Shown piece by piece: positions 31,755-60,605 of a DNA stretch of 64,000 nucleotides (position 1 is the stretch's first letter; every line of letters begins with the position of its first letter). The position numbers and the translations under genes are program-made. The stretch covers positions 15,821 through 79,820 of the forward strand of contig CAZFKS010000003.1 of the NCBI GenBank assembly GCA_964519725.1. Direction: 5' to 3'. Origin of the DNA: an uncultured Gammaproteobacteria bacterium (GTDB lineage: Bacteria; Patescibacteriota; Patescibacteriia; Magasanikbacterales; UBA922). Under the pieces are notes generated by a model. The model saw nothing but the letters and a program-made list of their open reading frames with translations, ran no database searches and was not told the origin of the DNA.

Positions 31755-31806
31755 AAAAATCCCCCCTGATCCGTCAGTTGACGGACGAAGGGGGATTTTT
31801 TATTTT
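31755..31806 (+). terminator. strong rho-independent terminator (nested hairpin ATCCCCC...CCGTC-AGTT-GACGG...GGGGGAT followed by T-run)
   Basis: Long GC stem directly after the lipoprotein stop, followed by TTTTTTATTTT. The low-GC block ends here. Confidence 0.7.
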
Positions 31807-32076
31807 CGGTGTGGGCCCAGAGCAACGACGTCACGAACCAGATTCACGGTACCGACGTCGCGGAGGCGCCTCCGGCAAATAATAATAACTTCGTGAACAT
31901 CCGGCCGCACTTTGACAAGATCCTCAAAGGACAACCGGACTGAGCGCCGGTCGGGTTGCATTGGGGACGCAGTCCGTGGTGACGCGTGAGCCCTTTCGCC
32001 TCACTACAGGGAGCGCACGGTAGTTCATAGACGTTGTGTCCGCGTGCCGCTTCTGGTACCAAAGCTCCGGAGGCCC

Positions 32077-39018: not shown

Positions 39019-39213
39019 TGCGCCTCAAGAGGCCCTCACGAACCTGCTTGGGAGCGGACGTCACCTCCTCGCGCTTCGTTGGCGTTGTAGTTCCGGGCTG
39101 GCGCCTTTTGATTCCCGACCAACGCTGTGCCTGTCGTGCTGCTTCGCTGCCGCATGAGGAATGTCTCACCGGAACGGCCGTCTCGCGCGCCGTCAACTCG
39201 TAATTAGGCGCCT

Positions 39214-39229
39214 GTTTCCCCGGGGAAAC
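39214..39229. promoter_or_regulatory. 16-bp perfect palindrome GTTTCCCCGGGGAAAC (copy 1), candidate operator
   Basis: 10 nt after the giant Cys-rich gene stop and about 195 nt upstream of the CTLD gene start. Confidence 0.5.
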
Positions 39230-39238
39230 ACGGTTCCT

Positions 39239-45127: not shown

Positions 45128-45133
45128 TCCGGG

Positions 45134-45829
45134 CTAGTTGGGTTGGCCGGACTCGCGAGAAAGAGGTTGCTGGGGCAGGATGATTGGCCACACGGCCGCT
45201 GAACTTTCGCCTTGTCCATGAACGGCACGAATGAAGGCAGGATAGGTGAGCCACATCGACAGGATTGCCTGCCCGGACCCACGAATTCGGAACCCGTAGA
45301 TTGCCAAGCGACCGCCTTCAAGTGCCGTTGACAAGTCTTCCAGCTTGCGTCGGCGCTGAGATTCCTCGGTCAACTTCATTTCGTAGTGCAGGCTGCTCCG
45401 GACGGCAGCGTCTGCTTCCCCAAGATCTGAGCCGTCAACGACGTCGAGTTCGAGATCCTGGGACGTGCTCGTCGAAAGCACCGAGTAGGAAACGACGCGG
45501 ATATCGTGAGCATTTCCCAGGACGGACGCGAGCTCCTCTGGCGTCATGAGGGAAGGGAGAAGGACTTCTCCCACCAGGACACTTGAACCGAACGACCGGA
45601 GTTCCTCAAACCACAACTTCTGCAACGCCGCGTCCTCCGCCCTCAGGGCCAGACACACCGTCGCGTTACTTTCGACTCTGGACGCCGAAGAACCAGGCGG
45701 GCAGTTGAGAACCCGCGGTTCCCTGAAGTCGCCCTCCGACCCGCATGCCACCAGTAGCAGTACAGCCAATAGGAGGGTGATCCACGGACACCAACCAAAG
45801 TCGCGAGGATAAGTGTTGATAGAATTCAT
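45134..45829 (-). CDS. lipoprotein, co-transcribed with the giant Cys-rich protein
   Basis: In-frame ATG at 45829 gives MNSINTYPRDFGWCPWITLLLAVLLLVACGSEG (lipobox). Stop 7 nt before giant gene start. Confidence 0.55.
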   Translation of the reverse strand: MNSINTYPRDFGWCPWITLLLAVLLLVACGSEGDFREPRVLNCPPGSSASRVESNATVCLALRAEDAALQKLWFEELRSFGSSVLVGEVLLPSLMTPEELASVLGNAHDIRVVSYSVLSTSTSQDLELDVVDGSDLGEADAAVRSSLHYEMKLTEESQRRRKLEDLSTALEGGRLAIYGFRIRGSGQAILSMWLTYPAFIRAVHGQGESSAAVWPIILPQQPLSRESGQPN

Positions 45830-45938
45830 ATGCCTTATTGTCTCACACGGCACACCAGCACGCAAGCGCGTGCGCGATCGGCTGTGGCGATGCCACAGGC
45901 GGTCGAAGACCAGTCTTGACCAAAGTGGGGCTTCCGCC

Positions 45939-45954
45939 GTTTCCCCGGGGAAAC
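45939..45954. promoter_or_regulatory. 16-bp palindrome GTTTCCCCGGGGAAAC (copy 2) in divergent promoter region
   Basis: Between the lipoprotein gene start (45829, minus) and the GHKL gene start (45998, plus). Confidence 0.5.
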
Positions 45955-45997
45955 GACTGGGTTCGTTCTTTCTTCCACGCTCGTCTGACGGCACGAT

Positions 45998-48085
45998 TTG
46001 ACCGGTCTCGGGTGTCCGGCTACCGTGTTCCGAGTGAAGGAGATCGAACTAGGCAACAGCGCAGCAAGCAGCCCCGTGCCCGAGCCGCCGCAGCCCGAGA
46101 TGAAAGTCGACGTGCTCGGGTGCGTGCGCGCGACTCACGTCCCGAAGGATTCGGCCTTTCTTCCGGTATTTGAAGCCGTCGTGAATGCGATCCATTCAAC
46201 TCAGGATCGATTCGGTACTGACGTTTTGGCTCAAGGACGGATCGAAGTGCGTGTTGTGCGCGTTCCTCAGCCTGATCTCCCTGGCTCGCCGGGTCGCCCT
46301 AGCGTCCTTCCGATCGAGCGCGTGGTTGTCACGGATAACGGCCAGGGATTTACGCCGCGGAACCTCGGTTCGTTCCAGACGGCGTACACGACGGCCAAGC
46401 TTGACCGAGGCGGGAAGGGCGTTGGGCGCTTTTCGTGGCTCGCCGTGTTTCGCGAAGCTCACGTCGAAAGCACGTACCATGAGGAGTCCGGCCCGCGGCG
46501 CCGGTCTTTCACGTTCCGCCCGACCCCCCGCGGAATCGAAGGTCACACCGACCTGCCGGTCGAGCCTGAGGCCGAACTCACAACAGCGGTCGAGCTTCGC
46601 GGCATTCAGCCGAAGTACGCGGACGCACTTCGCCGCGGAACCGACGTCATAGCCGAGAAGATCTTCGAGCATTGTTTCCCCTACTTCGTGGTCGGCGACT
46701 GCCCCGAGGTATTGCTAGTCGACGTCCTTCCTGACGGGGCTGAGCGTGTTCTCGTCAACGACAAAGTGAAGGAACTGCGGATCGGCCCGCCCCAGCCGCT
46801 GAAAGTCGGCTCTCATGTCCTCGAGGCTCGGCACGTCCAGCAACAACATCGTGGCGAACGACAACACACCGCCCACCTGTGCGCGAACAAGCGAGAAGTA
46901 GAAACGTTCAAGTTGTCAGCAGTTACCGAACTAGGCGACGGACCAATCGCGAGTTCGGATGGACAGTCGCTCGTGCATCACGTATTCGTGAGCGGCGGAG
47001 CGCTCGACGAGGCCGTTAACAGCGTTCGAACCCGGTTGGTTCTCGCAGAGGACGATTCGTTGTTCGCGAGCGCCGGCGAACTCGACATGAAGAGCATCAA
47101 GGCTGCCGCTGGTGAGCAGGTCCGGACCGAGCTCGCAGGGTTTCTCGAGGACGAGAAGAAAACGAACTTCGAGAGGATCGAGCGGCACATTCGCACCGTG
47201 CAGCCCGAGTACCGCCATCTCCTCACGCGAAAGCCCGATGAGCTCTCGCGCGTCAGGTGGACCGACAACCCACGGCAGCTCGACGAGAACCTCTACAAGG
47301 TCCAACAAGCTTGGGACACTGAGGCTCGTGCGCGACTCGCTGCCGTCGAGGAGAAGGTACTCGAGGGAACCAATCCGGAGCTCTTCGCCGATGAGCTCGG
47401 CCGCGTATCCGCAGAAGTGAATGAAGCCGGTGAGGCGAGCCTGATCAAGTACGTCGTCCGGCGTCGTGCCATCCTCAAGGTGGTTCGCGCTCTCCTTGGT
47501 CGAAATGCGCTCGAAGCACACATTCATCAGATTCTCTTTCCTCCCAAGAAGACCGCCGACGATGTCGAGTACGGTGATCACAACCTGTGGCTCGTCGACG
47601 ACACCTTCTCGTTCTACGAGCACGTCGCGTCCGACCTTCCGTTCTCGGCGATTTCGGCCGCCCCGGTTGACGGCCTGCGGCGGCCGGACCTCCTCGCGTT
47701 CAAGACCGGTGACTCGCCCTACCAGCACGTGGCCCTGCTCGAACTCAAGCGCCCGGAACGTGGCAACGACAACCCCGCCCAGCAGCTCATGGACTATGCC
47801 GTGCTGCTGCGAGAGGGCGGTGCGAAGAACGTGCATCACATGACCATGCCGGGAATCCCGAAGTCCGTTCGCATCGACGGGGTGGCACTTGTTACTCTGG
47901 GCCCCGAGATGGAGCGTCGTCTACGGACAGGGCCGGGGAACCTACGCAAGGCCGATGGTGAATGGCGCTGGTACGGCTTTGTGCCGGAAGAGAACCTAAG
48001 CATTGAGGTTCTCGATTTCCAGGCATTCGTCGTTCGAGCGGAGCAGCGCAACCGAGCGTTCTTCGCAAAGCTCGGCCTGAGCTAG
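45998..48085 (+). CDS. GHKL (histidine kinase/Hsp90/MORC-like) ATPase fused to a C-terminal PD-(D/E)xK-like nuclease domain; candidate single-gene defense protein
   Basis: VVTDNGQGFTPRNLGSFQ...KLDRGGKGVGRFSWLAVF = Bergerat-fold N/G boxes. C-terminus PDLLAFK...HVALLELKRPE = D...ELK nuclease-like motif. Track start is TTG at 45998; ATG at 46103 is an alternative. Confidence 0.6.
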   Translation: MTGLGCPATVFRVKEIELGNSAASSPVPEPPQPEMKVDVLGCVRATHVPKDSAFLPVFEAVVNAIHSTQDRFGTDVLAQGRIEVRVVRVPQPDLPGSPGRPSVLPIERVVVTDNGQGFTPRNLGSFQTAYTTAKLDRGGKGVGRFSWLAVFREAHVESTYHEESGPRRRSFTFRPTPRGIEGHTDLPVEPEAELTTAVELRGIQPKYADALRRGTDVIAEKIFEHCFPYFVVGDCPEVLLVDVLPDGAERVLVNDKVKELRIGPPQPLKVGSHVLEARHVQQQHRGERQHTAHLCANKREVETFKLSAVTELGDGPIASSDGQSLVHHVFVSGGALDEAVNSVRTRLVLAEDDSLFASAGELDMKSIKAAAGEQVRTELAGFLEDEKKTNFERIERHIRTVQPEYRHLLTRKPDELSRVRWTDNPRQLDENLYKVQQAWDTEARARLAAVEEKVLEGTNPELFADELGRVSAEVNEAGEASLIKYVVRRRAILKVVRALLGRNALEAHIHQILFPPKKTADDVEYGDHNLWLVDDTFSFYEHVASDLPFSAISAAPVDGLRRPDLLAFKTGDSPYQHVALLELKRPERGNDNPAQQLMDYAVLLREGGAKNVHHMTMPGIPKSVRIDGVALVTLGPEMERRLRTGPGNLRKADGEWRWYGFVPEENLSIEVLDFQAFVVRAEQRNRAFFAKLGLS

Positions 48086-48586: not shown

Positions 48587-49354
48587 TTAGGGCCCGGCCA
48601 GGGTCAAGCGTGCATGCTCGTCGGCCGCCGTTTTCAAGCACGCTTTCTTGGAAATAGCCTTCTGCACCTTCGCGTCCTCGTACCCCTGGTCACGCTGCCT
48701 CAAGAATGCTGTTCGGAGCACCTCCCAAGGGAAGATCCCGTCCACGGCGACTCTCCGTAGCTCCTCGACGGTGATAAGGATGTGAATTCGGCCGCGCAGC
48801 CAATCATGAAACAGATCACCGGCATAGCCCTTCCCGCTACCGAACCCGAATCCCGCGGCAGAGAATGCCACGCCGAAGGTGCAGCCGTGACTACTCATGC
48901 GGCCGCAGTGCTGAGCCCAATCTGCAGGCCCCATCGGAGCTATGTGGTTCTTCGCCTCCATGTAGAGGTTCGGTCCGGCGACGACCGCCATCCCAGCGCC
49001 GAGAATTCGGTCGATACGGTCGGGGAATACCTCGCCCTTACCATCGATGGTCCATCGGTTGCTGAGCCCACCTTTCTGTACGTCCCGCGCCACTCCACCT
49101 CTTTCGAGAAAGTAGCGCGCCACATCCTCCAATGGATCGCCCTTCACCGCTGTTGTCTGGTTGCCAGCCGCGGGGAGGTTTGCCTGCGTCGACGTGATAA
49201 AAGCGCGGTAGAGCTGCCGATAGGCCGCGGGATCCCAGCCGCCGAGAACCGCGTACGTGGCCTCGTACACCGCCCCCATCCCGCCAAGTTCATGAACCCG
49301 AGCGGCAATGGCCATCAGATGGCTAACATCCGGCTCAGGCGTGGGCGCGGTCAT
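48587..49354 (-). CDS. hypothetical protein translationally coupled to the 3' end of the Type ISP gene
   Basis: 255-aa ORF from ATG 49354, overlapping the upstream gene by about 20 nt. Gly-rich GFGFGSGKGYAGD segment. No family recognised. Confidence 0.45.
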   Translation of the reverse strand: MTAPTPEPDVSHLMAIAARVHELGGMGAVYEATYAVLGGWDPAAYRQLYRAFITSTQANLPAAGNQTTAVKGDPLEDVARYFLERGGVARDVQKGGLSNRWTIDGKGEVFPDRIDRILGAGMAVVAGPNLYMEAKNHIAPMGPADWAQHCGRMSSHGCTFGVAFSAAGFGFGSGKGYAGDLFHDWLRGRIHILITVEELRRVAVDGIFPWEVLRTAFLRQRDQGYEDAKVQKAISKKACLKTAADEHARLTLAGP

Positions 49355-52300
49355 CAAGGGCCCCTTCGGCCAAGAAGAACCGGATTCTGATCACCACGTC
49401 GTGCGGGCCATCGACGACGCGCGCGCACTCAGGGCAGGCGCTATTATACCGTCCTGCGAGCGCGAGGCTCTGAACACGGTCGGCGCTCGGCTCCTCCGGC
49501 CCGACGGCGCCGTTGCAGACCCGGTGATGAGGAATGAATCTCGCTCGAAACCATCCAACAAGCAGGAGCGCCAGCATGGCGTCACGAGCGGGCTCAGGAT
49601 TCCAATCTTTGCTGATCATCGCCGCAAGTGGGACTTGCCCGTCCAGCGTCGCAGCACCCACTTCAGCAGAGCGGCGTATGAACGCTGCGGCCTCCGCGGG
49701 CTCGAGGCGGAAGGTGCGCCTCAAGATCTGAATTGACCGGCCAAGAATGTCCCTGGGCGCTTCATCCTCGGCCGCCGCTGGATCCAGTTTGCCGGTCAAA
49801 CCACGAATAATCCGAACGGATTCGACCGCGACGGTGACCGCCTTCTTTAGAAGCCCAACAATATACATCGGATCGGACGACGCATCGTTCGGGTCCGACG
49901 CTATGCCGCTGTCCCTATCGGATGACGCCTCGTACTGATCCATCACCCATTCGAGGGGTGTCCGACCATTGATGACGTACTCATGTGCCTCGGGAGGGAT
50001 ACCGGCGAGCATAAGAGAAGAGTTTACACAGATACAGCTCTTGTCTACCTTCTTGCCCTCCCGCGCATATTGCATTCGGGTCACACGATAGGCACCTGGG
50101 TCGCGAGTCAGCGCAGTCCATTGCTCGCGCAGCGGGTACTCCGCTGCGGTCTCGTACCCCACATGCAGGGCAGAAAGCCTTCGACCGGCCGCAGCGAACG
50201 CGTCGAATGCACGACTCAGCGGAATGCGAGGAGGTTGGACCTTCAACTCGTTGGCGAACCGATCGCGATAATCGGGAGAGTGAAGAACGCCATAGACATA
50301 GAAGAAGATATCTTCCTTGGTGATGTCGTCTCGCGCGTAGCTGACACGGAACCAGTTTAGCGCTGCGTCTGTAATCGCCTCCCGGCGTCCACCAATTTGG
50401 TCGCCCGACGTTGCCTGAAAGAGATCAGTGGGCGACCCCTCGGCGGCGTAGACGAATCTCGGAAAGAACTGCGTGCCATCCGGAGCCACCTTCGAGTCTG
50501 GCAAGGTATCGGTCATTAGCACCGAGAACGCCCGTCGAGTTCCTGCCGCCGGCACGCAGATGGCGAGGTTCGGCGAGTTCGCCCCCGGAAACATCTCGGG
50601 GAGTTCGCCAACCAGTTCATTCATCCCGCGGTCGAAGTAGACCCACTTCTTGCAAAAGGGACGATACAACGCGCGTACGATGCGCTCTTCCGAGAACGGA
50701 TGGTCCCTTCCTGCCTTCAAAGCGTTTTTTAGACCGCGGCTCCATTTGATGCGGCGCTCGTCACGGTCAATGAAGGACTCTATGTCGAGCCATTGGGCTT
50801 TCTTGCGGCCGCTATTCGCCTTCCGGTAAGCAATGACATGCTGGTTGTAGACGGCGCTCATTCGTCGCATGTTGGCGGCCACTGCTGCAGCCGAGAAGCC
50901 ATACGCCCAGGCGTCGCGATTGGTCACGATGCCTGACGCGTACGTGCTGAACACGGTGAGCGGCTCGGTTCTGTCGCGGTCCTTTTCACCAAGCGCCAGG
51001 AGATGGCCGAAGTCGTCGCCTCGCTGTCTGACCCAGTCCCCCGCCGCGTTCGGCGTCACCTCGACCCAAGGCACTCCCTTGACGCTCTGGAACTCGGCCA
51101 CGCGCTGGAGCTTCTCGGGCGCGGTTAGGTAGTCGCCAATGTCATGGTAGAGCAGTCGCCTGGGTTGTGCCGCGGATGGATTACGCACGAGGACCGTAAT
51201 CGCGACTCCCGCCCTGCTTCCAGAACCGAATACCTTTCCGCCCTCCATCCGTGAAACAACGCCCTGGGTGCGCTGATCCCCACGAAGGTCGAAGCAATAG
51301 ATCGAGGTGAACTCGTCCCCAACACACTTCCGGAACCCGTCCATTGTCTTCTTCGACACGATGGCGCCGTTGCTTACGAACGCAATGACCCCTCGTTCCT
51401 TCAGGCGGTCGCTGGCCCATCTGAACGCCCGAATATACGAGTCGTAGAGGTTTCTTACCAAGTCCGCGCTTGAACTCGCCGCATAGGTTTGGCGGATACG
51501 TTCGTCGAGCTGAGGGTATTCGAGGTTCACGTTCCCGTCGTTCTGGCTCTCCTGCCCCACCGACCATGGTGGATTGCCAATTACGACGCGAATATCGGTC
51601 TCGTTCTGCAAAGCAGCCCGCCGATTGTTCTCTGGGAACATTGAGGCGAGGGTAGTCCCTCGCGTCTCGGTCATCTGAAAGGTGTCGGTTAGTACGATCC
51701 CCGGAAATGACTCGTATGGGGCTCCGGACAGCGCGTGGTAGGTGCTCTCGATGTTCACAGCCGCGATGTAGTACGCAAGCAAAACGAGCTCGTTGGCGTG
51801 AAGCTCTTTCAAATACTTGCGGCGGAGGTCCGCGCGGGCAATGAGGCCGCTCTGAAGTAGGCGAACGAGGAAGGTGCCTGTACCCGTAAACGGGTCCAGG
51901 ACGTGCACCCCCTCAGCCGAAAGACCGACGCCGAACTCCGCTGTCAGCACCGCCTGTACGCTGTGAATGATGAAATCCACGATCTCGACGGGGGTGTAGA
52001 CAATGCCAAGGCGTTCCGCCGTCCGCGGGAATGCGGTCCGGAAGAACTTGTCGTAAAGTTCAATGACGATGCGCTGCTTGCCTTCGGCATTATCGATCCC
52101 GCGTGCGCGGATTCGAACGCTCTCATAGAAGCTCTCCAGGGCCACCGTTTCCTTTTCGAGGTTCTCCTCCTGGAGTGCATCCAGCATCTTCTGCATGGCC
52201 ACGGAGACTGGATTCGAGCGAGTGAACTCATGCCCATCGAATAGCGCGTCGAAGACTGGGCGAGTGATAAGATGCTGCGAGAGCATTTCAATCGCGTCAT

Positions 52301-54551
52301 CTCTGCTGACGCTGGGATTCAGACTCGCTTGCAGCTCGGCAAGGAACTCTGCAAAGGCACGGCGCGCGACGCTACCCTTTCCATCCACAAGGGCCGATAT
52401 TCGAGCGACGTGACGTTCCGCGATTTCAGCAACATCCTTTGCCCAAGTCTCCCAGTAGCGCCGGTCTCCGCACTTTTCGACGATGCGCGCGTAAATGGCA
52501 TCGCGCCACTCCCCAATCTGCGGGAATGCGAGGTAGTATTGCTGCCCCTCACCATTCGGCGCGCGGCTCTGGCTCGTACCCTCGGTCTCGCGGCCCGAGA
52601 CGCCGACTACTTGGATCTGCGGTGGTCTGGTCTTGTTCAGTTCCAGCTGATTGATGGTCGCATTAAACCGGTCATCGTGCGCCCGCAGGGCCTGGAGAAC
52701 CTGCCATACGACTTTGTACTTCTGATTGTTTTTGAGGGCTTCATCCGGGCGCATGTCGGCAGGAATCCCGATAGGAAGGATGATGTACCCGTACTGCTTA
52801 CCTTCAGCTCGTCGCATCACCCGGCCAACCGACTGCACGACGTCGACGACCGAGTTTCGGGGGTTTAGAAACATGACGGCGTCGAGCGCAGGCACGTCCA
52901 CGCCTTCTGAGAGGCAGCGGGCATTCGAGAGGACCCGGCAGATCCCATCGCCGCCGGACTCTGCCTTCAGCCAATCAAGTCGTGCATTCCGCGCCAGCGC
53001 ATTGAAGGTACCATCCACATGGTCGACCTCGCACCGCAGCAGGCCTGGCTCTTCGGGATGCTCCTTGATGTAGGACTCGACAACCTGACCAAACAGGCCG
53101 GTGATTCGTTTGCTGTCTTTGATTGACCGGCAAAACGCCACCGCCCGCTTCATCGGAGCTGGGTCGGTCTCAGTCGCAGCTGAATCCTCGGTGAACCGCT
53201 TCGCGAGGCCGTTCCAGCACCCGGTGATCTTGACCGCGTCCTCGAGCCGGAGCTCGGAATCTTCGTCCGCGAGCTGCTTTTGGAACGTGCGGCTCACGTA
53301 TTTCTCGTCGACCGCGAGCACCATCACCTTGTAATCGGTGAGGAGTCCGGAGGCGACCGCTTCGGAAAACCCGAGCCGATGGAACTCCGGACCGTAGAGC
53401 CGTTCGTCGTCCATGGACGCGATCTCAGCGTCGTTCTCCTCGGCCTTCGTCTTGGTGACGTCGCTGAAGATACGCGGCGTGGCGGTCATGTATAGCCGGC
53501 GCTGAGCACGCACGAAGTCGCCGTCATGGACTCGGACGAAGTGCGATTCATCCTCGTCGGCGAGTTTCACGCCGGTCGTGCGGTGAGCCTCATCGCAGAT
53601 AATGAGGTCGAACTCCGGGAGCCCCTTTTTCTGAGCATCGGCGACTGCCTGGATCGACTGGTAGGTCGAGAAAACGACCGTGAGCTTTCCGTTGCCACCG
53701 TGCTTCCCGGCCTTTGCGAGGAGAGCGGCGTTGGTAGTGGCAGGGAACGCCAAGTCATGCGTGTGGAGGTCCTCGCTGTCGGCCGGCCGTCCGACCTGGG
53801 TATCCGAGCACACCGCGAACGCGCGAAGTTTCCGGCTCGCCTCCGAGGTCCACTCGCGGAGGGACTGAGAAAGCAGGGAGATCGATGGAACAAGAAACAG
53901 GACCGTAGCCGACTCTTTCGGAGTGAGTTCCTCGGCGATGCGAAGGGCAGTGAACGTTTTGCCGGTCCCGCAGGCCATGATTAGCTTTCCACGGGCGCTC
54001 GTCCGGAAACCATCACGTACTTTTCCTAGCGCGACCTGTTGATGCGGACGAAGGTCTTTCCGTTTGCGGAGCTGGATGTCCTCGGGCTTCCTGAGACTGA
54101 ACCGGCTCCAATCGATTGGACTTTCCGCCAGGTCCTGAACGCGAAGGCGCGTTACCGGAAGCGTCTGTCCGGTAAGCGCGTCCTCGGCATGCTTACTCCA
54201 CCGGTCAGTGGTGGAAACCAAGAGCCGGGTCGTGAAGGGTGCCTTTCCAGAGGCCGTGAAAAAAGAGTCGATATCGCCCTTCTGAAGATAGTGATCCGGG
54301 TCGAAGAACTTGCACTGGATAGCGCAGAAGCCTTCGGTCTCGCGCTCGCGCGCCACGAGGTCAATGCCCGTGTCCGGGCGGTGGCCACGCTCGGGCCATT
54401 CATTCCACAGCCACACGTCGCTGAACCGAGCCTTGTAAAGGGGGTCGGTCCGGAGATACGCCGCGATCAACCGCTCGAAGCGGTCGCCCTGGTCTCGCTT
54501 GGAGCGGGCTCCGACGCGCAGTTCGTCAAGGATGGCGTGAATCGAGGGCAT
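49335..54551 (-). CDS. Type ISP-like single-polypeptide restriction-modification enzyme: N-terminal Mrr-family PD-(D/E)xK nuclease, SF2 helicase-like ATPase, gamma-class N6-adenine DNA methyltransferase, C-terminal target-recognition region
   Basis: DTGIDLVARERETEGFCAIQCK (D...E.K nuclease); MACGTGKTFTAL Walker A; LIICDEAHRTTG DEAH box; VLDPFTGTGTFLV (MTase motif I); VIGNPPWSVGQ (motif IV NPPW); 1,738 aa. Confidence 0.75.
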   Translation of the reverse strand: MPSIHAILDELRVGARSKRDQGDRFERLIAAYLRTDPLYKARFSDVWLWNEWPERGHRPDTGIDLVARERETEGFCAIQCKFFDPDHYLQKGDIDSFFTASGKAPFTTRLLVSTTDRWSKHAEDALTGQTLPVTRLRVQDLAESPIDWSRFSLRKPEDIQLRKRKDLRPHQQVALGKVRDGFRTSARGKLIMACGTGKTFTALRIAEELTPKESATVLFLVPSISLLSQSLREWTSEASRKLRAFAVCSDTQVGRPADSEDLHTHDLAFPATTNAALLAKAGKHGGNGKLTVVFSTYQSIQAVADAQKKGLPEFDLIICDEAHRTTGVKLADEDESHFVRVHDGDFVRAQRRLYMTATPRIFSDVTKTKAEENDAEIASMDDERLYGPEFHRLGFSEAVASGLLTDYKVMVLAVDEKYVSRTFQKQLADEDSELRLEDAVKITGCWNGLAKRFTEDSAATETDPAPMKRAVAFCRSIKDSKRITGLFGQVVESYIKEHPEEPGLLRCEVDHVDGTFNALARNARLDWLKAESGGDGICRVLSNARCLSEGVDVPALDAVMFLNPRNSVVDVVQSVGRVMRRAEGKQYGYIILPIGIPADMRPDEALKNNQKYKVVWQVLQALRAHDDRFNATINQLELNKTRPPQIQVVGVSGRETEGTSQSRAPNGEGQQYYLAFPQIGEWRDAIYARIVEKCGDRRYWETWAKDVAEIAERHVARISALVDGKGSVARRAFAEFLAELQASLNPSVSRDDAIEMLSQHLITRPVFDALFDGHEFTRSNPVSVAMQKMLDALQEENLEKETVALESFYESVRIRARGIDNAEGKQRIVIELYDKFFRTAFPRTAERLGIVYTPVEIVDFIIHSVQAVLTAEFGVGLSAEGVHVLDPFTGTGTFLVRLLQSGLIARADLRRKYLKELHANELVLLAYYIAAVNIESTYHALSGAPYESFPGIVLTDTFQMTETRGTTLASMFPENNRRAALQNETDIRVVIGNPPWSVGQESQNDGNVNLEYPQLDERIRQTYAASSSADLVRNLYDSYIRAFRWASDRLKERGVIAFVSNGAIVSKKTMDGFRKCVGDEFTSIYCFDLRGDQRTQGVVSRMEGGKVFGSGSRAGVAITVLVRNPSAAQPRRLLYHDIGDYLTAPEKLQRVAEFQSVKGVPWVEVTPNAAGDWVRQRGDDFGHLLALGEKDRDRTEPLTVFSTYASGIVTNRDAWAYGFSAAAVAANMRRMSAVYNQHVIAYRKANSGRKKAQWLDIESFIDRDERRIKWSRGLKNALKAGRDHPFSEERIVRALYRPFCKKWVYFDRGMNELVGELPEMFPGANSPNLAICVPAAGTRRAFSVLMTDTLPDSKVAPDGTQFFPRFVYAAEGSPTDLFQATSGDQIGGRREAITDAALNWFRVSYARDDITKEDIFFYVYGVLHSPDYRDRFANELKVQPPRIPLSRAFDAFAAAGRRLSALHVGYETAAEYPLREQWTALTRDPGAYRVTRMQYAREGKKVDKSCICVNSSLMLAGIPPEAHEYVINGRTPLEWVMDQYEASSDRDSGIASDPNDASSDPMYIVGLLKKAVTVAVESVRIIRGLTGKLDPAAAEDEAPRDILGRSIQILRRTFRLEPAEAAAFIRRSAEVGAATLDGQVPLAAMISKDWNPEPARDAMLALLLVGWFRARFIPHHRVCNGAVGPEEPSADRVQSLALAGRYNSACPECARVVDGPHDVVIRIRFFLAEGALDDRAHA

Positions 54552-54938
54552 CGTTCGCTGGTGTCGTCCGTGGCCATGAACCTAGTCGAGTAGTGCCGCA
54601 TCCGTCAACGTTCGGCTAACCGCTGCGACCGTTCCTACATGAGTGCCCTCGCACTATCTTTCGCTAGTTCAGGTCGCCGTTCGGTCCATGGACAAGGCTC
54701 CTCAGGGCGACGAGCTCGTGCTCAATAGCTTGCCGCGATCGCTCCTCGCGGAGGTCAACGAGTCGCTGGGCCGGAAGGAGGAGCCCCGCTGTCTCCGCGT
54801 CGCGAGCCCAGCTGAGGAGCAGGTGAAGAACACCCTCGCGGTCCAGCTCACTGCGTCGGAACGCGCGAATCGTCCCATCGAGCTGTCGAAGAAGGCGGAG
54901 CCGGTCGGAAACGTGCACGGGCACCACAGTCGGCGCGT

Positions 54939-55625
54939 CTACTCGACCGTGCCATCGGCGCGGGCCGCGAGCTGCTCCCGGAGCGCCCCGAGCCGCTCCC
55001 ACGCTTCGTCGAGCTGGAGCCGCATCTCGCGGGCCGCCTTCTCGTCGAGCCCATCCAACTTCGCCGGCGTCAGTCGCTTCAGGTTCAGCCCGTCGAGCGC
55101 CTTCATGACCTTGCGAAGGTTCTTCACCGGCTCTGGCTCCGGCTTCCGTCCCCGCTTCTCCCCCGGAATCTCCTTGGCCCGGACCTTCTTCACCCGCTGC
55201 TCGAGCTCGCGCTTCCCGAGGTTCTTCTCGATAGCTTCGCTCGCGAGCTTCAGCTTCTTCTCCGGGTCCTTGACCGGCAGGAGGAGCTTGTGGTGCGAGA
55301 GCGGGAGCGCCTCCGCGATGTTCTCGGGCAGCTGCTTCAGCTGGTCCACGACCGCGACCGCGTTCCAGATGAACTGGTAGTTCACTCGGAGGTCCGTCCG
55401 CTCCCCGAGCTTTCGGAACGTGACGTGCTTCCTTCCGTGCGTGCGGAAGTTCGCCGTGTCCCCGTCAAAGAACCGGTCGAGGACGTACGACCCGATGGCC
55501 CGGGTCATCTCGAGGCCCTTCGCTACGTAGAGGCGGTTGATCTCGGCAACCGCCTCGGACAGCGCGGCCTCGTCGACTTCGCCACCTTCTTCCGGAACCA
55601 CTGCGAGCGTCTTCTCACGCGCCAT
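54939..55625 (-). CDS. ParB/KorB-like nuclease-domain protein
   Basis: LSHHKLLLPVKDPEKKLKLASEAIEKNLGKRELEQRVKKV resembles the ParB HTH/linker region; 228 aa. Coordinates from ORF track. Confidence 0.45.
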   Translation of the reverse strand: MAREKTLAVVPEEGGEVDEAALSEAVAEINRLYVAKGLEMTRAIGSYVLDRFFDGDTANFRTHGRKHVTFRKLGERTDLRVNYQFIWNAVAVVDQLKQLPENIAEALPLSHHKLLLPVKDPEKKLKLASEAIEKNLGKRELEQRVKKVRAKEIPGEKRGRKPEPEPVKNLRKVMKALDGLNLKRLTPAKLDGLDEKAAREMRLQLDEAWERLGALREQLAARADGTVE

Positions 55626-55692
55626 GGCGGCACCTCCAGAGCAGGGACGCTAATCCCCTCCACGCCCTAGGTCAACTCGGAATCAGGTGCTT

Positions 55693-55708
55693 GTTTCCGC
55701 GGGGAAAC
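55693..55708. promoter_or_regulatory. 16-bp near-palindrome GTTTCCGCGGGGAAAC (copy 3, one asymmetric position)
   Basis: About 68 nt upstream of the ParB-like gene start; next to element B copy 1. Confidence 0.45.
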
Positions 55709-55731
55709 ATGCCGTCCCGCAGGGACGTGCT

Positions 55732-55868
55732 TCCCCCTCTGGGGGAGGGGTGGCCGTGAAGCGGGCGGCCCTCCGGCATAGGGGGACCGAGGGGGTGACG
55801 GGGCCAGCGGCCGCCCCGCCCCCAAGGGGGGCGGAAGCGCCGCGGCCATAAGAAGATAGGCCCACCCG
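55732..55868 (-). repeat. element B copy 1: about 137-bp GC-rich multi-hairpin element just downstream of the P-gene stop
   Basis: TCCCCCTCTGGGGGAGGG...GCCGCCCCGCCCCCAAGGGGGGCGG...GATAGGCCCACCC; about 88% identical (by eye) to 61125-61263. Confidence 0.6.
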
Positions 55869-55871
55869 CAT

Positions 55872-56228
55872 TTATTCATTCTGCCTGGCCGCAAGCGCGG
55901 CGCGGAGACGGCGGGCGCGCCGGTCAAGCGAAACAAGCGTCTTCGCGAGTTCGGCCGTAGGGAGCCGGTGGTAGTACTCGAACATGACGGCTTCCCAGTC
56001 GAAGACAAGGGCGGCGTCGGGCTCGCCCGGCACCGAGAACGCGACGGACGCGGCGTAGATTTCCATCGCTATCGGCTCGTCCTGGGCGTGCAGCGTGAAC
56101 GCGAGGCCCGTCGACTCGACGAACGCCGCGAGCTGCGTCGGCGATGGGCGCCGGGATGGAAACGCGGACCGTAGCCGGTCGGCTATCCCCCGTGCGGTGG
56201 CGAGCCGGTTCTTTCGGTCGCGGGTCAT
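55872..56228 (-). CDS. small protein, family P member 1 (unknown function)
   Basis: 118 aa; homologous to the genes at 56225-56587 and 61268-62005 (QLAAFVESTGLAF...ALVFDWEAVMFE...LDRRARRLR). Confidence 0.5.
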   Translation of the reverse strand: MTRDRKNRLATARGIADRLRSAFPSRRPSPTQLAAFVESTGLAFTLHAQDEPIAMEIYAASVAFSVPGEPDAALVFDWEAVMFEYYHRLPTAELAKTLVSLDRRARRLRAALAARQNE

Positions 56229-56587
56229 AGGACTGCAAGTCGGGCGGCGAGCGCGGCGCCAACCGTCTGGGCCTCGGCGTCAAGCCGAAGAATCTCTTCG
56301 GCGAGCTCTTCCATGGTCCAGTGGCTGCCGAAGCCGAAGAGCGCTTCGTCGCCAAAGAGGGCGCCTGACACAAGGGACGTACCTGAAAGCGGAATCGTGA
56401 GTGGCGCGACGGCGACGAACGCCCGGAACCCGGTTTCCGGGTCGTGCGTGTCAATGAGCCTGACGGTAAGGTCCGAAAAAGACACGAAAGCGGCGATGTC
56501 GTCGTGCGTCGGCGCGTCCGGGAGCTCGTCTCGAAGGCGCTCGGCGAGTGCAAGAACCTCGGGTGAATAGGTCGTATCAGCGGTCAT
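56225..56587 (-). CDS. small protein, family P member 2 (unknown function)
   Basis: 120 aa; overlaps member 1 by 4 nt; shares the DDIAAFVSF...FRAFVAVAPLTIPL core with the paralogs. Confidence 0.5.
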   Translation of the reverse strand: MTADTTYSPEVLALAERLRDELPDAPTHDDIAAFVSFSDLTVRLIDTHDPETGFRAFVAVAPLTIPLSGTSLVSGALFGDEALFGFGSHWTMEELAEEILRLDAEAQTVGAALAARLAVL

Positions 56588-56993
56588 ACGGAACGGTTAC
56601 GAACAAGAGTGCGAGCCCGCGAGTGGTCGGGGCGGCGCGCGGAACACGTGGTTGCCGGTGGTGGTCGAGGTCGTGTCATAGGAGGCGGGCCGGGGCCGTT
56701 ATCCGCCCCGCGGCTCCCGCGTGGCGACTGGACTCCCTGCCCGATACCGGGAGCCGATTAGCCAGGCGGCCCGTCCACAGGTCAAGGCCCTCGGCCGCTC
56801 TCGGACGGGCGCCTTGCCGCCCGGGGGTAACCTGTGGGCGGACGTCTGGCAGGCTCAACCGGCAGGGCGGGAGGCCGGGAGCTGAGCGGGACCGCTCGTG
56901 TTCGCGTTGTCTCTCGGCTGTTGGCTGTTCGGGTGGGCCTGTCCGGCCGACGTGCGCCGTGGGGCGCCGACGGCAAGGACTCCTTATGGGGGG
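56588..56993 (-). repeat. element A copy 1: about 400-bp conserved non-coding leader directly upstream of the P-gene start codon (candidate structured RNA / regulatory leader)
   Basis: About 95% identical (by eye) to the split copy at 62006-62367 plus 62797-62853. Contains long GC stems, e.g. CGGCTCCCG...CGGGAGCCG and GGCGGCCCGTCC...GGACGGGCGCC. Track ORFs over it are Arg/Pro-rich artefacts. Confidence 0.6.
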
Positions 56994-57056
56994 AGCCGCG
57001 CCGCGGCGACTAAGTCCCCCATGGAAGCCCGGCGCGCGCGGGCGCAGCGATAGCGT

Positions 57057-57072
57057 GTTTCCCCGGGGAAAC
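57057..57072. promoter_or_regulatory. 16-bp palindrome GTTTCCCCGGGGAAAC (copy 4)
   Basis: Between the SMC-like ATPase gene stop and leader element A copy 1. Confidence 0.5.
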
Positions 57073-57172
57073 AGCATGACCTGGCGCGCTTGCGGCCACG
57101 TTCGCACCCAACCGCGTTCCCACGGCGACGGCCGTTCGTTCGCCACATTTGGCCGAGTTGCGCCACCGCTTC

Positions 57173-58957
57173 CTACTTCACTTCGCCGAGGAAGTGCGGA
57201 CTCTTGGGCCCCTGGAAGGTCGGGGCCCAGGTCTCATCGATCCCTGCCGGCACAACCTCAATATCGGTGGCGCTGTACACGAGCTGAATGGGCGGGTCAG
57301 TCGTCGAGATCATCTTCTTGAACTCAACGACGAAGTCTCGTAGGTCCTCGGCGCTCAGCTCTTGTTGACGGGGCGCATCCAAGATAAGAACTCGGGGATG
57401 CTGCCCGTTCGTCTTGAGCGAGGCTTCGACGAGTGCGGCGTGATATGCGAGCACGAACCGGGCTCGCGTGCTGCCCGAATGACCAGAACCCTTCTTGAAG
57501 ACTTCTCCGTCCACGACGAATCGAAAATCTTCATCCCACGTGACGTCGAGAGCGGTGTTAGGAGTTCGGAGGACCGCCAGCCACCTTCGCGCTGCACCGG
57601 CCAATGCTGATCGAGCGTCGAGGACCCGGTCTCCCGGGCCGCTCCGCCTCGCTCGTGGACGGAGGGAGTCAACTAACTCGGCTTCGGCCCGCTCGCGGTC
57701 GAGAAGGGCGTTGAGCTGGGCTCGCTCGCGCTCGATGCGCTGCAGCCGATCGAGACGGACCCGAACGTCACCGATCTCTCTACTCAGGGTGTCAAGCATG
57801 GCCACGACCGATTCGCCGGGGCTCCGGGCGAGGCCGTCAGTCTTCTCTTTGACGGTAGTATCGAGGGCCGCCTGCGCTTCAGCGAGCTGCGAACCAAGCA
57901 GCCCGATTTCGGTATTCGCGTCCCCGATCCCCGTGACGAAGTCCTTGAGCTGGTCCCTCAAGTAGAGCACCCGGCGGCCATATGACGCTTCCGGGTTCCG
58001 GAAAAACTGGCAACTGCCACTGCCGCACAGCCTTCGGAACACGTCGGCCGCAATTTCGTTCTGTTCGAGAGCAGACAACTCGGTCTCAATCTCGGCCTGA
58101 GCGGCTTGCACCTGCATCATCCGACGCCTCAGGGCGCCATGTCGTTGGCCTAGCTCGTCGCGAATCCTCGTTGCCTCTCGGATTCGGCCATCGTAGACCG
58201 CACTGTCCGCAGCCAACACCTCGAGTGCGGAGTACATCCGAGTTAGCTCGCGCTCCAGGGTCGCGTGCCGCTCCCGAAGTAGAACCGCGCCATCGGGGCT
58301 GGCATCGGCGCCAGTTTCGCGCTGGAGCGCTTCGAGCCCGAGCCTCTTGAACGATATCTGTTCGCGTGTGCCGCCAAGACGTTCTTCAGCGGTTCGGAAG
58401 GCAGACTTGTCGACGGGCTTGTGCTTCGGTGGCAGGTCGAGGAGCCACCGCACCACTTCCTCGCGCTGGTCTCGCACGAACGTAGCTGTCGGCTCGTACC
58501 CGGTGGTCCAGCCCCCGTCCTGCTCAACCAAGAACATCGGGCCAGCCACGCTCAGGTACGCCGGAACTGGAGAGCCGTCACCACTTGAGGTGAGAGTCCG
58601 CGGCGCCGTACCGATTCTCGGAAGTACCCACGCCGAGAGTTCTCGCTCGGTTGCGATTTCGGTGCGCTCGCCGTCAGGTCCCTGAACGCGCACCTCAACT
58701 CCCTTTGCAACGATCTGCCGTTCGAGCGTGTGCTCGCCTAGGCCATCCGTGAGAACGAGGCGGACTGCTTGGCAGCGCTCGCGCACGTCCTTCGGGAACT
58801 CCACCGGAAGCCCCAGCGCGTACATAATCGCCTTCATTACCGGCGTCTTGCCGGAGCCGTTCGGCCCGAGGACCACCGTCGTGTGGCGCCCGAAGCGGAG
58901 TTTGCCAGAGCCCCAGCCTGCTTCGCCCCGCGGGAGGATTTCGAATTCAGTGAGCAT
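57173..58957 (-). CDS. SMC/ABC-type ATPase with central coiled coil (LmuB/DdmC-like)
   Basis: VVLGPNGSGKTPVMKAI Walker A at N-terminus; long Ala/Arg/Glu/Leu-rich coiled coil; C-terminal RVLILDAP Walker-B-like box (Asp-Ala rather than Asp-Glu). ATG overlaps upstream stop (ATGA). Confidence 0.7.
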   Translation of the reverse strand: MLTEFEILPRGEAGWGSGKLRFGRHTTVVLGPNGSGKTPVMKAIMYALGLPVEFPKDVRERCQAVRLVLTDGLGEHTLERQIVAKGVEVRVQGPDGERTEIATERELSAWVLPRIGTAPRTLTSSGDGSPVPAYLSVAGPMFLVEQDGGWTTGYEPTATFVRDQREEVVRWLLDLPPKHKPVDKSAFRTAEERLGGTREQISFKRLGLEALQRETGADASPDGAVLLRERHATLERELTRMYSALEVLAADSAVYDGRIREATRIRDELGQRHGALRRRMMQVQAAQAEIETELSALEQNEIAADVFRRLCGSGSCQFFRNPEASYGRRVLYLRDQLKDFVTGIGDANTEIGLLGSQLAEAQAALDTTVKEKTDGLARSPGESVVAMLDTLSREIGDVRVRLDRLQRIERERAQLNALLDRERAEAELVDSLRPRARRSGPGDRVLDARSALAGAARRWLAVLRTPNTALDVTWDEDFRFVVDGEVFKKGSGHSGSTRARFVLAYHAALVEASLKTNGQHPRVLILDAPRQQELSAEDLRDFVVEFKKMISTTDPPIQLVYSATDIEVVPAGIDETWAPTFQGPKSPHFLGEVK

Positions 58958-59436
58958 CAGAGTAGCTCCAGACCTCGGAGTCGAACCCGCTCGTGTGCCT
59001 TTGCGAGTGATCGAACAAGCGCACCAACATCGGTAATTTGAACCCGCAGATCCGAAAGAAGTGCCCGGCCGGTGGCGGAGGTGCTGACGCGACGAAGCGA
59101 CCCCTCGACCACATCAACCAAGCCAACAGTCTCAAGAATTGCGAGACCATCGGCGCACCGAGCGCGAAGCGAAACAGACCACTTCAGTCGACTTCTCGTC
59201 CCTCCGTCCGGGTCGAATCGCTCTGCAAGCACCGCGAGTGTCCATGTGGCTAGTTCACTGGTGCGGAGTTCGCCGTGACGCGCGTGTGTCACGACAAGAA
59301 TCGCGAGTGCGATAAGAGGCGTGTGGAAGAGCGTGTCGGCCGACAGGCCAGCTACGCGGTCGAGCCCGTCGGCGTTGACCTGCAACCGGACGTTTGCCGC
59401 CATTGCTGCTTCGATCAATTGTTCGAGGGTCCTCAC
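58957..59436 (-). CDS. small middle subunit of the three-gene operon (LmuC/DdmB-position protein)
   Basis: 159-aa ORF (GTG start at 59436, or ATG 59403) overlapping both neighbours. Confidence 0.45.
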   Translation of the reverse strand: MRTLEQLIEAAMAANVRLQVNADGLDRVAGLSADTLFHTPLIALAILVVTHARHGELRTSELATWTLAVLAERFDPDGGTRSRLKWSVSLRARCADGLAILETVGLVDVVEGSLRRVSTSATGRALLSDLRVQITDVGALVRSLAKAHERVRLRGLELL

Positions 59437-60605
59437 GGCTCCGCCTCGACAGCCAGCGCCAGGATCGCGCCGAAAACGAGTGACTTGGTGAGTGGCTTCG
59501 TGGCGCCAATTGTGGCGTACCTCTGTGCGAGTGCACTCGCCTCATTCACGAGCCAGTCTAACGCCTTTCGGTCGGACACGTAGATCCGGAGCACGTCGCG
59601 GCAGTCCTTCTTTAGCAGGAGCAGGTCAGCAAGGTCGATCGTGGATCGTTCGGCGATAACCCACTCATCCCATCCCGTCTTCAGCTGACACCAGTCGGGA
59701 ATATGTGATTCGTCAATGCCGCTTCGCTGACAAAGCCGGTGAAGGCGCGAAAGAGCTACTACAGTTTGAAGGCCGGTCTCCTTAAGCGCTCGGTATCCCG
59801 TCGCCGAGAGGCTGAGGAGCTTTAGGATGTCCTCGAGGACGAGCGCCTTTTCCGACCGCAAGTCTGCCGGTGTCGACGGAAGGGCCTTCAGCACACGCTG
59901 GGACTTTCCGCGCACGACCGTGACAAGGCTTTCGCCGATGCGGAGTGCCTCGGACATTCGCAGGTCGACCTCAGAGAGCTTTCGAATTCGATTGCCGATC
60001 TCCAGCCGGCAGACGTCCTGATCGTGGAGTTTCCCGACGCACTCCTGCACGTGGAGACGCTGGAGGAAGGAGAGGAAGCTGGCCTCATCAAGACCAGGAA
60101 CCGCGGCCGGAAGGACTGCCACGACGTCCTGAAATATCCGAAGCGACTCACCGGCAAGCTGCGAATGAGAGGTGACGTTCTTCGCCTCCGTCAACAGGGC
60201 GTCGAACTCCGACGCAACCGCGGCGTTCGTGACGAAGACGAATCGGGCGCAACGCCCTCCGAAGCGAGTGGTGTGATCGAACATCTTCGGAAAAATGGCG
60301 GTCGCGTCGGCGGTGTACGGTGCCCTACGTCCTTTGAGCCCGAAGAACTCCTTCCACGACCAGGGACCTTCACTCGGCGAGCGGGTCTTCACCTGGTGGA
60401 ATCGGTACGAGATTATCGTGGCTTCCTCGAATACGTAGTCATCATGCCACTCGCAATAGATGCACACGTACTGATTTTCATCGAGAACGAGAAGCGCATC
60501 GTATGCCGCTTGATGATATTGGAACTCATAACGAGCGCCGGTGACGGCGCCGACCTGCTCGCGCGGCTCGCTCTGAAACAGTTCACGTCCGACCGGAGCG
60601 CTCAC
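59433..60605 (-). CDS. DUF4297-like (Cap4/LmuA-type) PD-(D/E)xK nuclease-domain protein, candidate effector
   Basis: N-terminus GARYEFQYHQAAYDALLVL then CEWHDDYVFEE...FHQVK fits the D...QxK restriction-endonuclease-like core; 390 aa; GTG start. Confidence 0.55.
   Translation of the reverse strand: MSAPVGRELFQSEPREQVGAVTGARYEFQYHQAAYDALLVLDENQYVCIYCEWHDDYVFEEATIISYRFHQVKTRSPSEGPWSWKEFFGLKGRRAPYTADATAIFPKMFDHTTRFGGRCARFVFVTNAAVASEFDALLTEAKNVTSHSQLAGESLRIFQDVVAVLPAAVPGLDEASFLSFLQRLHVQECVGKLHDQDVCRLEIGNRIRKLSEVDLRMSEALRIGESLVTVVRGKSQRVLKALPSTPADLRSEKALVLEDILKLLSLSATGYRALKETGLQTVVALSRLHRLCQRSGIDESHIPDWCQLKTGWDEWVIAERSTIDLADLLLLKKDCRDVLRIYVSDRKALDWLVNEASALAQRYATIGATKPLTKSLVFGAILALAVEAEP

Follow-up and report, generated by a model that had tools for sequence, protein, structure and literature searches.

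Gene and domain organisation

We analysed a 64,000-nucleotide stretch of contig CAZFKS010000003.1 (GenBank assembly GCA_964519725.1; hereafter, the window), in which a gene on the forward strand encodes a predicted GHKL (Bergerat-fold) ATPase joined to a C-terminal PD-(D/E)xK nuclease domain, a candidate single-gene defence system. The open reading frame (ORF) given for this protein in the initial annotation, 45998..48085 (+), is genuine and holds 695 codons counted from a TTG (ORF list and translation), but the start codon probably lies further downstream, at ATG 46100, because the N-termini of the family align at this methionine in the homologue alignment. The coding sequence accordingly delimited (46100..48085, +; ORF list, translation and family N-termini) comprises 661 amino acids plus stop. 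Two alternative starts were considered: GTG 46025, which is used by a public gene call on a Logan contig and yields 686 amino acids, and TTG 45998, which gives the longest ORF and with which the intergenic space would vanish. The gene is monocistronic in the window, and its GC content at third codon positions (0.72) is the same as that of its neighbours. Residue numbering below is counted from ATG 46100, and motif coordinates were checked by translation.

Conservation was assessed using an alignment of the window protein with 45 homologues (24–62% identical to it), in which 31 columns are invariant. An AlphaFold model built on this family alignment (predicted local distance difference test score, pLDDT, 87.9) divides the protein into four parts (residues ~1–175, ~180–315, ~320–467 and 468–661). 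The first of these (about residues 1–175; 46100..46624, +) is the GHKL ATPase domain, identified from its motifs and from Foldseek matches (E about 1e-12). It carries Bergerat motif I (EAVVN, E25..N29; 46172-46186, +), motif II (DNGQG(F), D79-N-G-x-G83; 46334-46348, +) and a glycine-rich ATP lid (GGKGVGR(FSW), G104..R110; 46409-46429, +), all three of which are present and invariant in 45/45 homologues; the invariant N-terminal residues include E25, N29, D79, G81, G83, G104, K106, G107, G109 and R110. As these motifs are unchanged across homologues of such low identity, selection, not chance, accounts for them. Pfam recognised the domain only below threshold: the window protein scored 17.3 and 16.9 bits against HATPase_c and HATPase_c_3 (E 0.006), compared to gathering cut-offs of 26.4 and 25, while the same two models matched 36/45 and 35/45 relatives, respectively, at E <= 1 (best 1.4e-6).

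The second domain (about residues 180–315; 46637..47044, +), delimited by AlphaFold secondary structure and Foldseek, is alpha/beta in the model, includes the invariant residues R265 and R310, and corresponds to a transducer or middle domain. Searches of Protein Data Bank (PDB) structures with Foldseek matched the ATPase and transducer to GyrB/ParE 43K, the SMCHD1 ATPase module, Hsp90, Topo VI-B and the N-terminal domains of PMS1/MutL (E 2e-12 to 4e-10, over 320–500 columns spanning both domains). Single-sequence and profile searches of PDB sequences returned no useful match to the window protein except a marginal profile match to an Mlh1 N-terminal domain (residues 244–335). Because Foldseek aligned the ATPase and transducer together with GyrB, SMCHD1, Hsp90, Topo VI-B and PMS1, the N-terminus is predicted to be a dimerising, clamp-type GHKL and transducer ATPase module. 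The Bergerat-fold assignment made in the initial annotation is thus borne out by translated motifs and by structural matches (E 1e-12 to 1e-10). A closer assignment to MORC proper was rejected: a regular-expression search for the S5 signature GhXhhpXXRhl found it absent from the window protein, and its one occurrence among the 45 relatives lay inside the ATPase domain and was a chance match.

Residues 320–467 or thereabouts (47057..47500, +) form a long helical linker, with helices at 330–366, 391–420 and 426–467 and pLDDT mostly of 76–93, which is presumed from the model to act as a dimerisation element or as a lever between ATPase and nuclease. The "unknown region" of about 450 amino acids described previously between the two catalytic domains therefore does not hold up, as the model resolves it into the transducer (about 180–315) and these long helices (about 320–467).

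The C-terminal part (residues 468–661; 47501..48082, +) was assigned as a PD-(D/E)xK nuclease domain, remotely Shedu- and RecB-like, from its invariant residues, its model and a profile-profile comparison. Translation places the relevant positions, all on the forward strand, at E472 (47513-47515), an RPD motif (47681-47689) containing D530 (47687-47689), an ELKRP motif (47741-47755) containing E548-L-K550 (47741-47749), and Q562xxxY566 (47783-47797). Invariant residues among the 45 homologues include E472, H476, D500, S511, D530, E548, K550, P552 and Y566, and the Q562xxxY566 motif is nearly so. Modelled alone (pLDDT 91.2), the domain shows the order alpha(E472)-beta-beta(D530)-beta(E548xK550)-alpha(Q562xxxY566)-beta, which is that of a PD-(D/E)xK core. 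Foldseek matches to this model were weak (best McrC, E 0.013; TM-scores about 0.3), and all that could be interpreted were restriction-fold nucleases (McrC, NucC, Can2, BstEII, BsmI, MspJI, HamA and the Avs3 nuclease). Weak Pfam matches among the 45 relatives were to HSDR_N (9), HSDR_N_2 (3) and SduA_C (1, E 0.006), and one relative outside the alignment (P0061) matched NERD. The comparison by hhalign of the family C-terminus with 11 plasmid-derived SduA_C domains gave 92.7% probability (E 4.4e-7, 143 columns); the ExK, the Q after it and the last strand were in register, and the Asp was shifted by one column. A PD-(D/E)xK assignment is supported by these comparisons and by the model, and the D...ELK motif that had been singled out as nuclease-like is upheld by its invariant residues, the restriction-fold topology and the hhalign match to Shedu nuclease domains.

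Kinship with VcSduA

We consider it highly probable (about 0.85) that the window protein is a divergent member of the VcSduA family (GHKL-Shedu, Shedu type I-D, formerly paraMORC3) and has a role in defence. VcSduA is a GHKL and DUF4263 protein of pandemic Vibrio cholerae that protects E. coli from T1-like phages and V. cholerae from vibriophage X29 (Adams et al., PMC12137116). Substitution of either its ATPase (E27A) or its nuclease (K557A) abolishes defence, and cells were protected at every multiplicity of infection, as would be expected if the phage is targeted directly (PMC12137116). The protein has been modelled as a dimer, while a tetramer model was poorly supported (PMC12137116). The direct comparison with VcSduA covers its first 399 residues, as given in the preprint supplement, and the C-terminal link runs via an orthologue encoded on a V. 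fluvialis plasmid. Over 374 amino acids, the VcSduA segment is 29% identical to the window protein (E 2e-44), and it is 63% identical to the V. fluvialis protein, which is in turn collinear end to end with the window protein (28% identity, E 3e-74). In this last alignment, E25, D530 and K550 of the window protein pair with E27, D526 and K556 of the V. fluvialis protein, and the QxxxY motif is aligned too; E25 and K550, the counterparts of VcSduA E27 and K557, are invariant in the family. Moreover, of the 543 VcSduA homologues listed by Adams et al., four are relatives that we had recovered independently, namely those of Mesorhizobium (EJ069_RS11060, our P0094), Rhodococcus pyridinivorans (Y013_RS23900, H4), Hymenobacter (GKZ68_RS20575, H5) and V. 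fluvialis (QUF32_RS24520, H10). Membership of the VcSduA family is thus indicated by homology over the full length, by matching catalytic residues and by the presence of relatives in the published list.

VcSduA (A1552VC_00276, AWB73059.1; WASA lineage) and the window protein are alike in length (673 and 661 amino acids), share the order GHKL, middle domain, helices and PD-(D/E)xK, and are both encoded by stand-alone genes in defence islands. They differ in setting, as VcSduA is found on a Vibrio genomic island with GrwAB as neighbours, whereas the window gene occurs in a high-GC, Myxococcota-like context beside a Type ISP R-M (restriction-modification) enzyme and Lamassu. They also differ in that the anti-phage activity of VcSduA has been shown by experiment, while that of the window clade is predicted from sequence and context. 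The assignment would extend a validated form of single-gene phage defence to a distant clade in high-GC, Myxococcota-like bacteria, and a divergent orthologue could help to define the essential features of a restriction-fold nuclease controlled by a GHKL clamp.

Adams et al. equate VcSduA-like proteins with paraMORC3 (PMC12137116), a group described by Iyer, Abhiman and Aravind in 2008 as combining GHKL and S5 domains with a C-terminal restriction-fold domain that bears E-D-ExK and has RecB-like similarity, and whose nuclease-bearing subset occurs often as stand-alone genes (PMC2292703). The window protein, which we matched to paraMORC3 by description only, fits this definition (E472, D530, E548xK550 and Q562xxxY566). 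The fusion of a GHKL ATPase to a nuclease is therefore already known, its description dating from 2008 (PMC2292703) and its in vivo validation from 2025 (PMC12137116), and the novelty ascribed to it when it was called "only sparsely characterised" in prokaryotes was overstated. The same two-domain ATPase module is found in MORC, MutL, GyrB, Topo VI-B, Hsp90 and SMCHD1, and MutL and the topoisomerases likewise pair a GHKL and transducer module with a nuclease. The window protein differs in the nuclease type, which is PD-(D/E)xK rather than TOPRIM or the MutL C-terminal endonuclease, and, unlike MORC-group proteins, it has no chromatin-reader domains.

The label "Shedu" holds for the window protein only at the level of remote homology, judging from these sequence comparisons. 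Gu et al. list GHKL-fold N-termini among Shedu homologues with enzymatic N-terminal domains (10.1101/2023.08.10.552793), and canonical Shedu senses free DNA ends (10.1101/2023.08.10.552762). Canonical Shedu (SduA, DUF4263) resembles the window protein in being a single-protein defence nuclease whose PD-(D/E)xK domain is C-terminal and whose N-terminal sensor varies; it is, however, a tetramer without an ATPase, unlike the GHKL-bearing window protein. Neither the window protein nor its VcSduA-like V. fluvialis counterpart was detected by Pfam SduA_C, the PADLOC SduA models or NCBIfam, while a canonical Shedu encoded beside the V. fluvialis gene served as a positive control and was readily detected (Pfam 1.3e-25, PADLOC 3.6e-170). 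This amounts to an annotation blind spot, in which thousands of clusters at 50% identity go unrecognised by PADLOC v2.0.0, Pfam SduA_C and NCBIfam.

Genomic settings, proposed mechanism and alternative roles

An exhaustive HMMER search of 1.84 billion representatives (50%-identity clusters) recovered 4,814 family members at E <= 1e-3, 3,475 at E <= 1e-10 and 1,958 at E <= 1e-30. The family architecture is fixed, because the best 150 proteins were nearly all 650–730 amino acids long, each with a single stretch covering almost the whole profile. Public records label family members as "ATP-binding protein" or "hypothetical protein". A word-indexed homologue search found about 100 proteins, to which a repeat with the alignment as query added none, and a scan of GTDB genomes found a single partial relative, in a Polyangiaceae metagenome-assembled genome (44% identity). 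Homologues were also found on plasmids by tblastn, in 59 records, of which 30 were conjugative and 48 covered at least 80% of the window protein, at 25–30% identity.

We examined gene context at 18 loci, and no conserved partner gene was present among them. R-M components occurred within 10 kb in 7/18 loci, and the type of R-M system differed each time: Type ISP in the window; Type III in Geoanaerobacter (13 bp upstream, same strand); Type I in V. fluvialis, together with a canonical Shedu gene overlapping by 4 bp; a methylase with a specificity (S) domain in Anaerotignum, plus Mrr and GmrSD; Type II in Manganitrophus (XamI plus an N6 methylase); a C5 methylase plus DEAD helicase at locus L031; and an Eco57I-like Type IIG enzyme at L034. 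A further 8/18 loci adjoined genes for toxin-antitoxin systems, Abi, CBASS, HEPN proteins, integrases or other mobile-element functions, and one, on a Rhodococcus plasmid, had mainly transposases and acetyltransferases nearby. The context analysis of homologues that had been proposed as a check thus places the genes mostly in defence islands or mobile elements, with no constant partner. This absence of a partner, together with homology to the validated VcSduA, is consistent with the stand-alone defence candidate originally put forward.

The V. fluvialis locus lies on the IncC plasmid pIDH5335-1 (L010 6619-10013), where the canonical Shedu gene (459 amino acids, SduA_C 1.3e-25) overlaps the GHKL-nuclease gene by 4 bp and a Type I R-M operon lies immediately upstream of the pair. 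The 672-amino-acid GHKL-nuclease encoded there is 86–97% conserved in Vibrio, Aeromonas, Klebsiella, Proteus, Morganella and E. coli. Many of its copies are on contigs of about 90–100 kb, which we take to be the size range of SXT/R391-type integrative and conjugative elements (ICEs).

With all ATPase and nuclease catalytic residues intact in the window protein, a mechanism can be sketched from what is known of GyrB, MutL, Hsp90 and MORC modules and from the dimer model of VcSduA (PMC12137116). The protein would act as a homodimer, as GHKL and transducer modules do, and ATP binding would join the two N-terminal ATPase domains, closing a cavity around DNA that would be lined by the transducer domains and helical arms. 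Closure would then position or unlock the C-terminal PD-(D/E)xK domains, which would cut the captured foreign DNA, and ATP hydrolysis, with E25 as the catalytic base, would reset the clamp. Defence would consist of direct degradation of phage DNA and not of cell suicide, as reported for VcSduA. The cue that marks DNA as foreign could be free ends or replication intermediates, as possible by comparison with canonical Shedu, with free ends being the most economical guess. Taken together, we give the steps of this ATP-gated clamp nuclease roughly even odds. There is an outside chance that the clamp of this divergent clade instead reads DNA crossings, supercoiling or loops, as type II topoisomerases and MutL do, or cooperates with the adjacent R-M system; if true, this would be the first ATP-gated, topology-sensing restriction-fold nuclease.

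Several observations weigh against a VcSduA-like defence role. The window protein shares only about 28% identity with VcSduA-type proteins, so that activity and phage range are not surely transferable, and the direct alignment with VcSduA is limited to its first 399 residues, with the C-terminus linked through the V. fluvialis orthologue. Neither the PADLOC SduA models nor NCBIfam matched the window protein, and Pfam SduA_C (PF14082) did not match it even at E <= 1, with its single match among the 45 relatives at E 0.006. A Shedu structure was absent from the top 50 Foldseek matches of the C-terminal model, the best of which reached an E of only 0.013. Two of the 18 loci (Mesorhizobium and Bryobacterales) were among housekeeping genes only. 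Lastly, a literature search turned up no biochemical study of GHKL-Shedu, and dimerisation, DNA capture and ATP-gated cleavage are inferred.

The main alternative, which we disfavour and to which we assign a slim chance, is that the protein is an accessory subunit of the adjacent R-M system, with its clamp looping DNA or handing it over to the Type ISP enzyme and having no defence activity of its own. R-M components within 10 kb at 7/18 loci are in keeping with this, as is the R-M-linked role that Iyer et al. predicted for the wider group of MORC and paraMORC ATPases (PMC2292703). A specific partnership is nevertheless made less likely by the finding of a different R-M type at each of these loci (ISP, III, I, II, IIG), and the remaining 11/18 loci had no R-M gene nearby. 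In the window itself, the two genes are convergent and another called gene lies between them. The nuclease-bearing paraMORC3 subset was, moreover, noted as stand-alone by Iyer et al. (PMC2292703), and VcSduA alone protects when expressed in E. coli (PMC12137116). Given the convergent genes and an R-M type that varies from locus to locus, we judged it unlikely that the protein works specifically with the Type ISP enzyme.

Alternatively, the protein might act on the DNA of its own cell or of mobile elements, either as a MutL-like repair or recombination nuclease or as a factor in the competition or stabilisation of plasmids and ICEs. The combination of GHKL, transducer and nuclease parallels that of MutL and type II topoisomerases (PMC2292703), many homologues are carried by plasmids (the 59 records, 30 conjugative) and ICE-like elements, and the two housekeeping loci would be in line with such a role. 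We consider it very unlikely and without specific support, however, as the genes are sporadic across phyla without a conserved chromosomal position, have no MutS-type partner, and occur within defence islands and close to toxin-antitoxin and Abi genes, while the validated homologue acts on phages (PMC12137116).

A sensor histidine kinase or other signalling ATPase with a fortuitous D...ExK motif, as might be supposed from one database source that names a homologue "signal transduction histidine kinase" and from the Pfam HATPase_c model also covering kinases, is effectively refuted: Pfam found no HisKA/DHp domain in the window protein or its relatives, an H-box was absent, none of the 18 loci had a response-regulator neighbour, the structural matches were to clamp-type proteins (GyrB, MutL, Hsp90 and SMCHD1) including their transducer domains, and the nuclease residues do not vary among the 45 divergent homologues. 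An N-terminal domain of the histidine kinase type, with DHp or receiver partners, had been named at the outset as one of two findings that would overturn the defence assignment; Pfam, the H-box search and the 18 loci speak against it.

Surroundings of the gene in the window

The GHKL-nuclease gene is followed, on the opposite strand, by an intact Type ISP R-M enzyme of 1738 amino acids (49335..54551, -; Pfam Mrr_cat_2, ResIII, ISP_coupler, N6_Mtase and Type_ISP_C), which PADLOC identified as REase_MTase_IIG (2132 bits). The two genes are convergent and not co-transcribed, and another called gene lies between them. The statement in the initial annotation that the GHKL gene sits next to the R-M system is therefore correct in that a Type ISP gene is nearby, but the arrangement is one of co-localisation in a defence island and not of an operon. 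A complete Lamassu system (57173..60605, -; Pfam and PADLOC) is located about 9 kb beyond the GHKL gene and consists of LmuA with a Cap4-type nuclease (59433..60605, -; Pfam Cap4_nuclease, PADLOC 7e-63), LmuC (58957..59436, -; PADLOC 1e-15) and the SMC-like LmuB (57173..58957, -; Pfam SMC_N/AAA_23, PADLOC 1.7e-119). Both the Type ISP enzyme and Lamassu fall within 12 kb. Because Lamassu and an R-M gene are present, we refer to the region as a defence island; with the GHKL-nuclease gene, it spans about 15 kb, and the GHKL-nuclease would be its third system after Type ISP R-M and Lamassu.

The gene called between the GHKL-nuclease and Type ISP genes is an ORF of 255 amino acids (48587-49354, -) that was also called as a gene on an independent Logan contig. 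The ORF shares the strand of the Type ISP gene, the 3' end of which it overlaps by about 20 bp, and contains a D...ExK-like motif (IDGKGEV...NLYMEAKNH). It had no match in Pfam, PADLOC, PDB sequences or a plasmid tblastn search, and may be an uncharacterised nuclease partner of the R-M enzyme. The interval of about 2.6 kb between Type ISP and Lamassu (54643-57321) contains three ORFs of 245, 209 and 257 amino acids (54643..55380, +; 55924..56553, -; and 56548..57321, +, respectively), which had no Pfam or PADLOC match and could be either further defence genes or spurious high-GC ORFs. On the other side of the GHKL gene, the island is bounded on its left by an apparent operon (36685-45829, -) that has no relation to defence. 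Its products are a lipoprotein (231 amino acids), a 1962-amino-acid protein that carries MopE metal-binding repeats and Dicty_CTDC repeats, and a 777-amino-acid protein that has a C-type lectin domain.

On a larger scale, the GC content of the window jumps from 0.43 to 0.60 at about 31757-31810, just past a strong terminator hairpin (31757-31803). To the left of this point, 31.8 kb encode housekeeping proteins (pyruvate kinase, FtsA, HisRS and RibB), as well as giant proteins with T4SS_pilin N-termini, which we take to be typical of the candidate phyla radiation (CPR)/Patescibacteria. The right half, with its MopE/Dicty_CTDC repeat and C-type lectin proteins, is Myxococcota-like in appearance. 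In these respects, the window resembles a chimeric contig or two unrelated genomes joined together.

Between the divergent lipoprotein and GHKL genes is an intergenic region of 270 bp (45830..46099). Its left boundary is set by the start codon of the lipoprotein gene (45827-45829, minus strand), which is supported by a signal peptide with lipobox and by the 231-amino-acid public gene call. A search of this region upstream of the GHKL gene found no sigma-70-like promoter, so that expression of the gene from here, as given in the initial annotation, is putative. Two adjacent palindromes, noted previously as part of a divergent promoter, are present and were located by inverted-repeat search: GCACGC-AAGC-GCGTGC at 45858-45873, and a second at 45875-45905 with 14-nucleotide arms around GAT. 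The palindromic DNA has a predicted folding energy of -22.7 kcal/mol (z -4.4), a stability reached by 0/200 shuffles, and its sequence (45858-45905) occurs once in the window, where it could be a putative operator.

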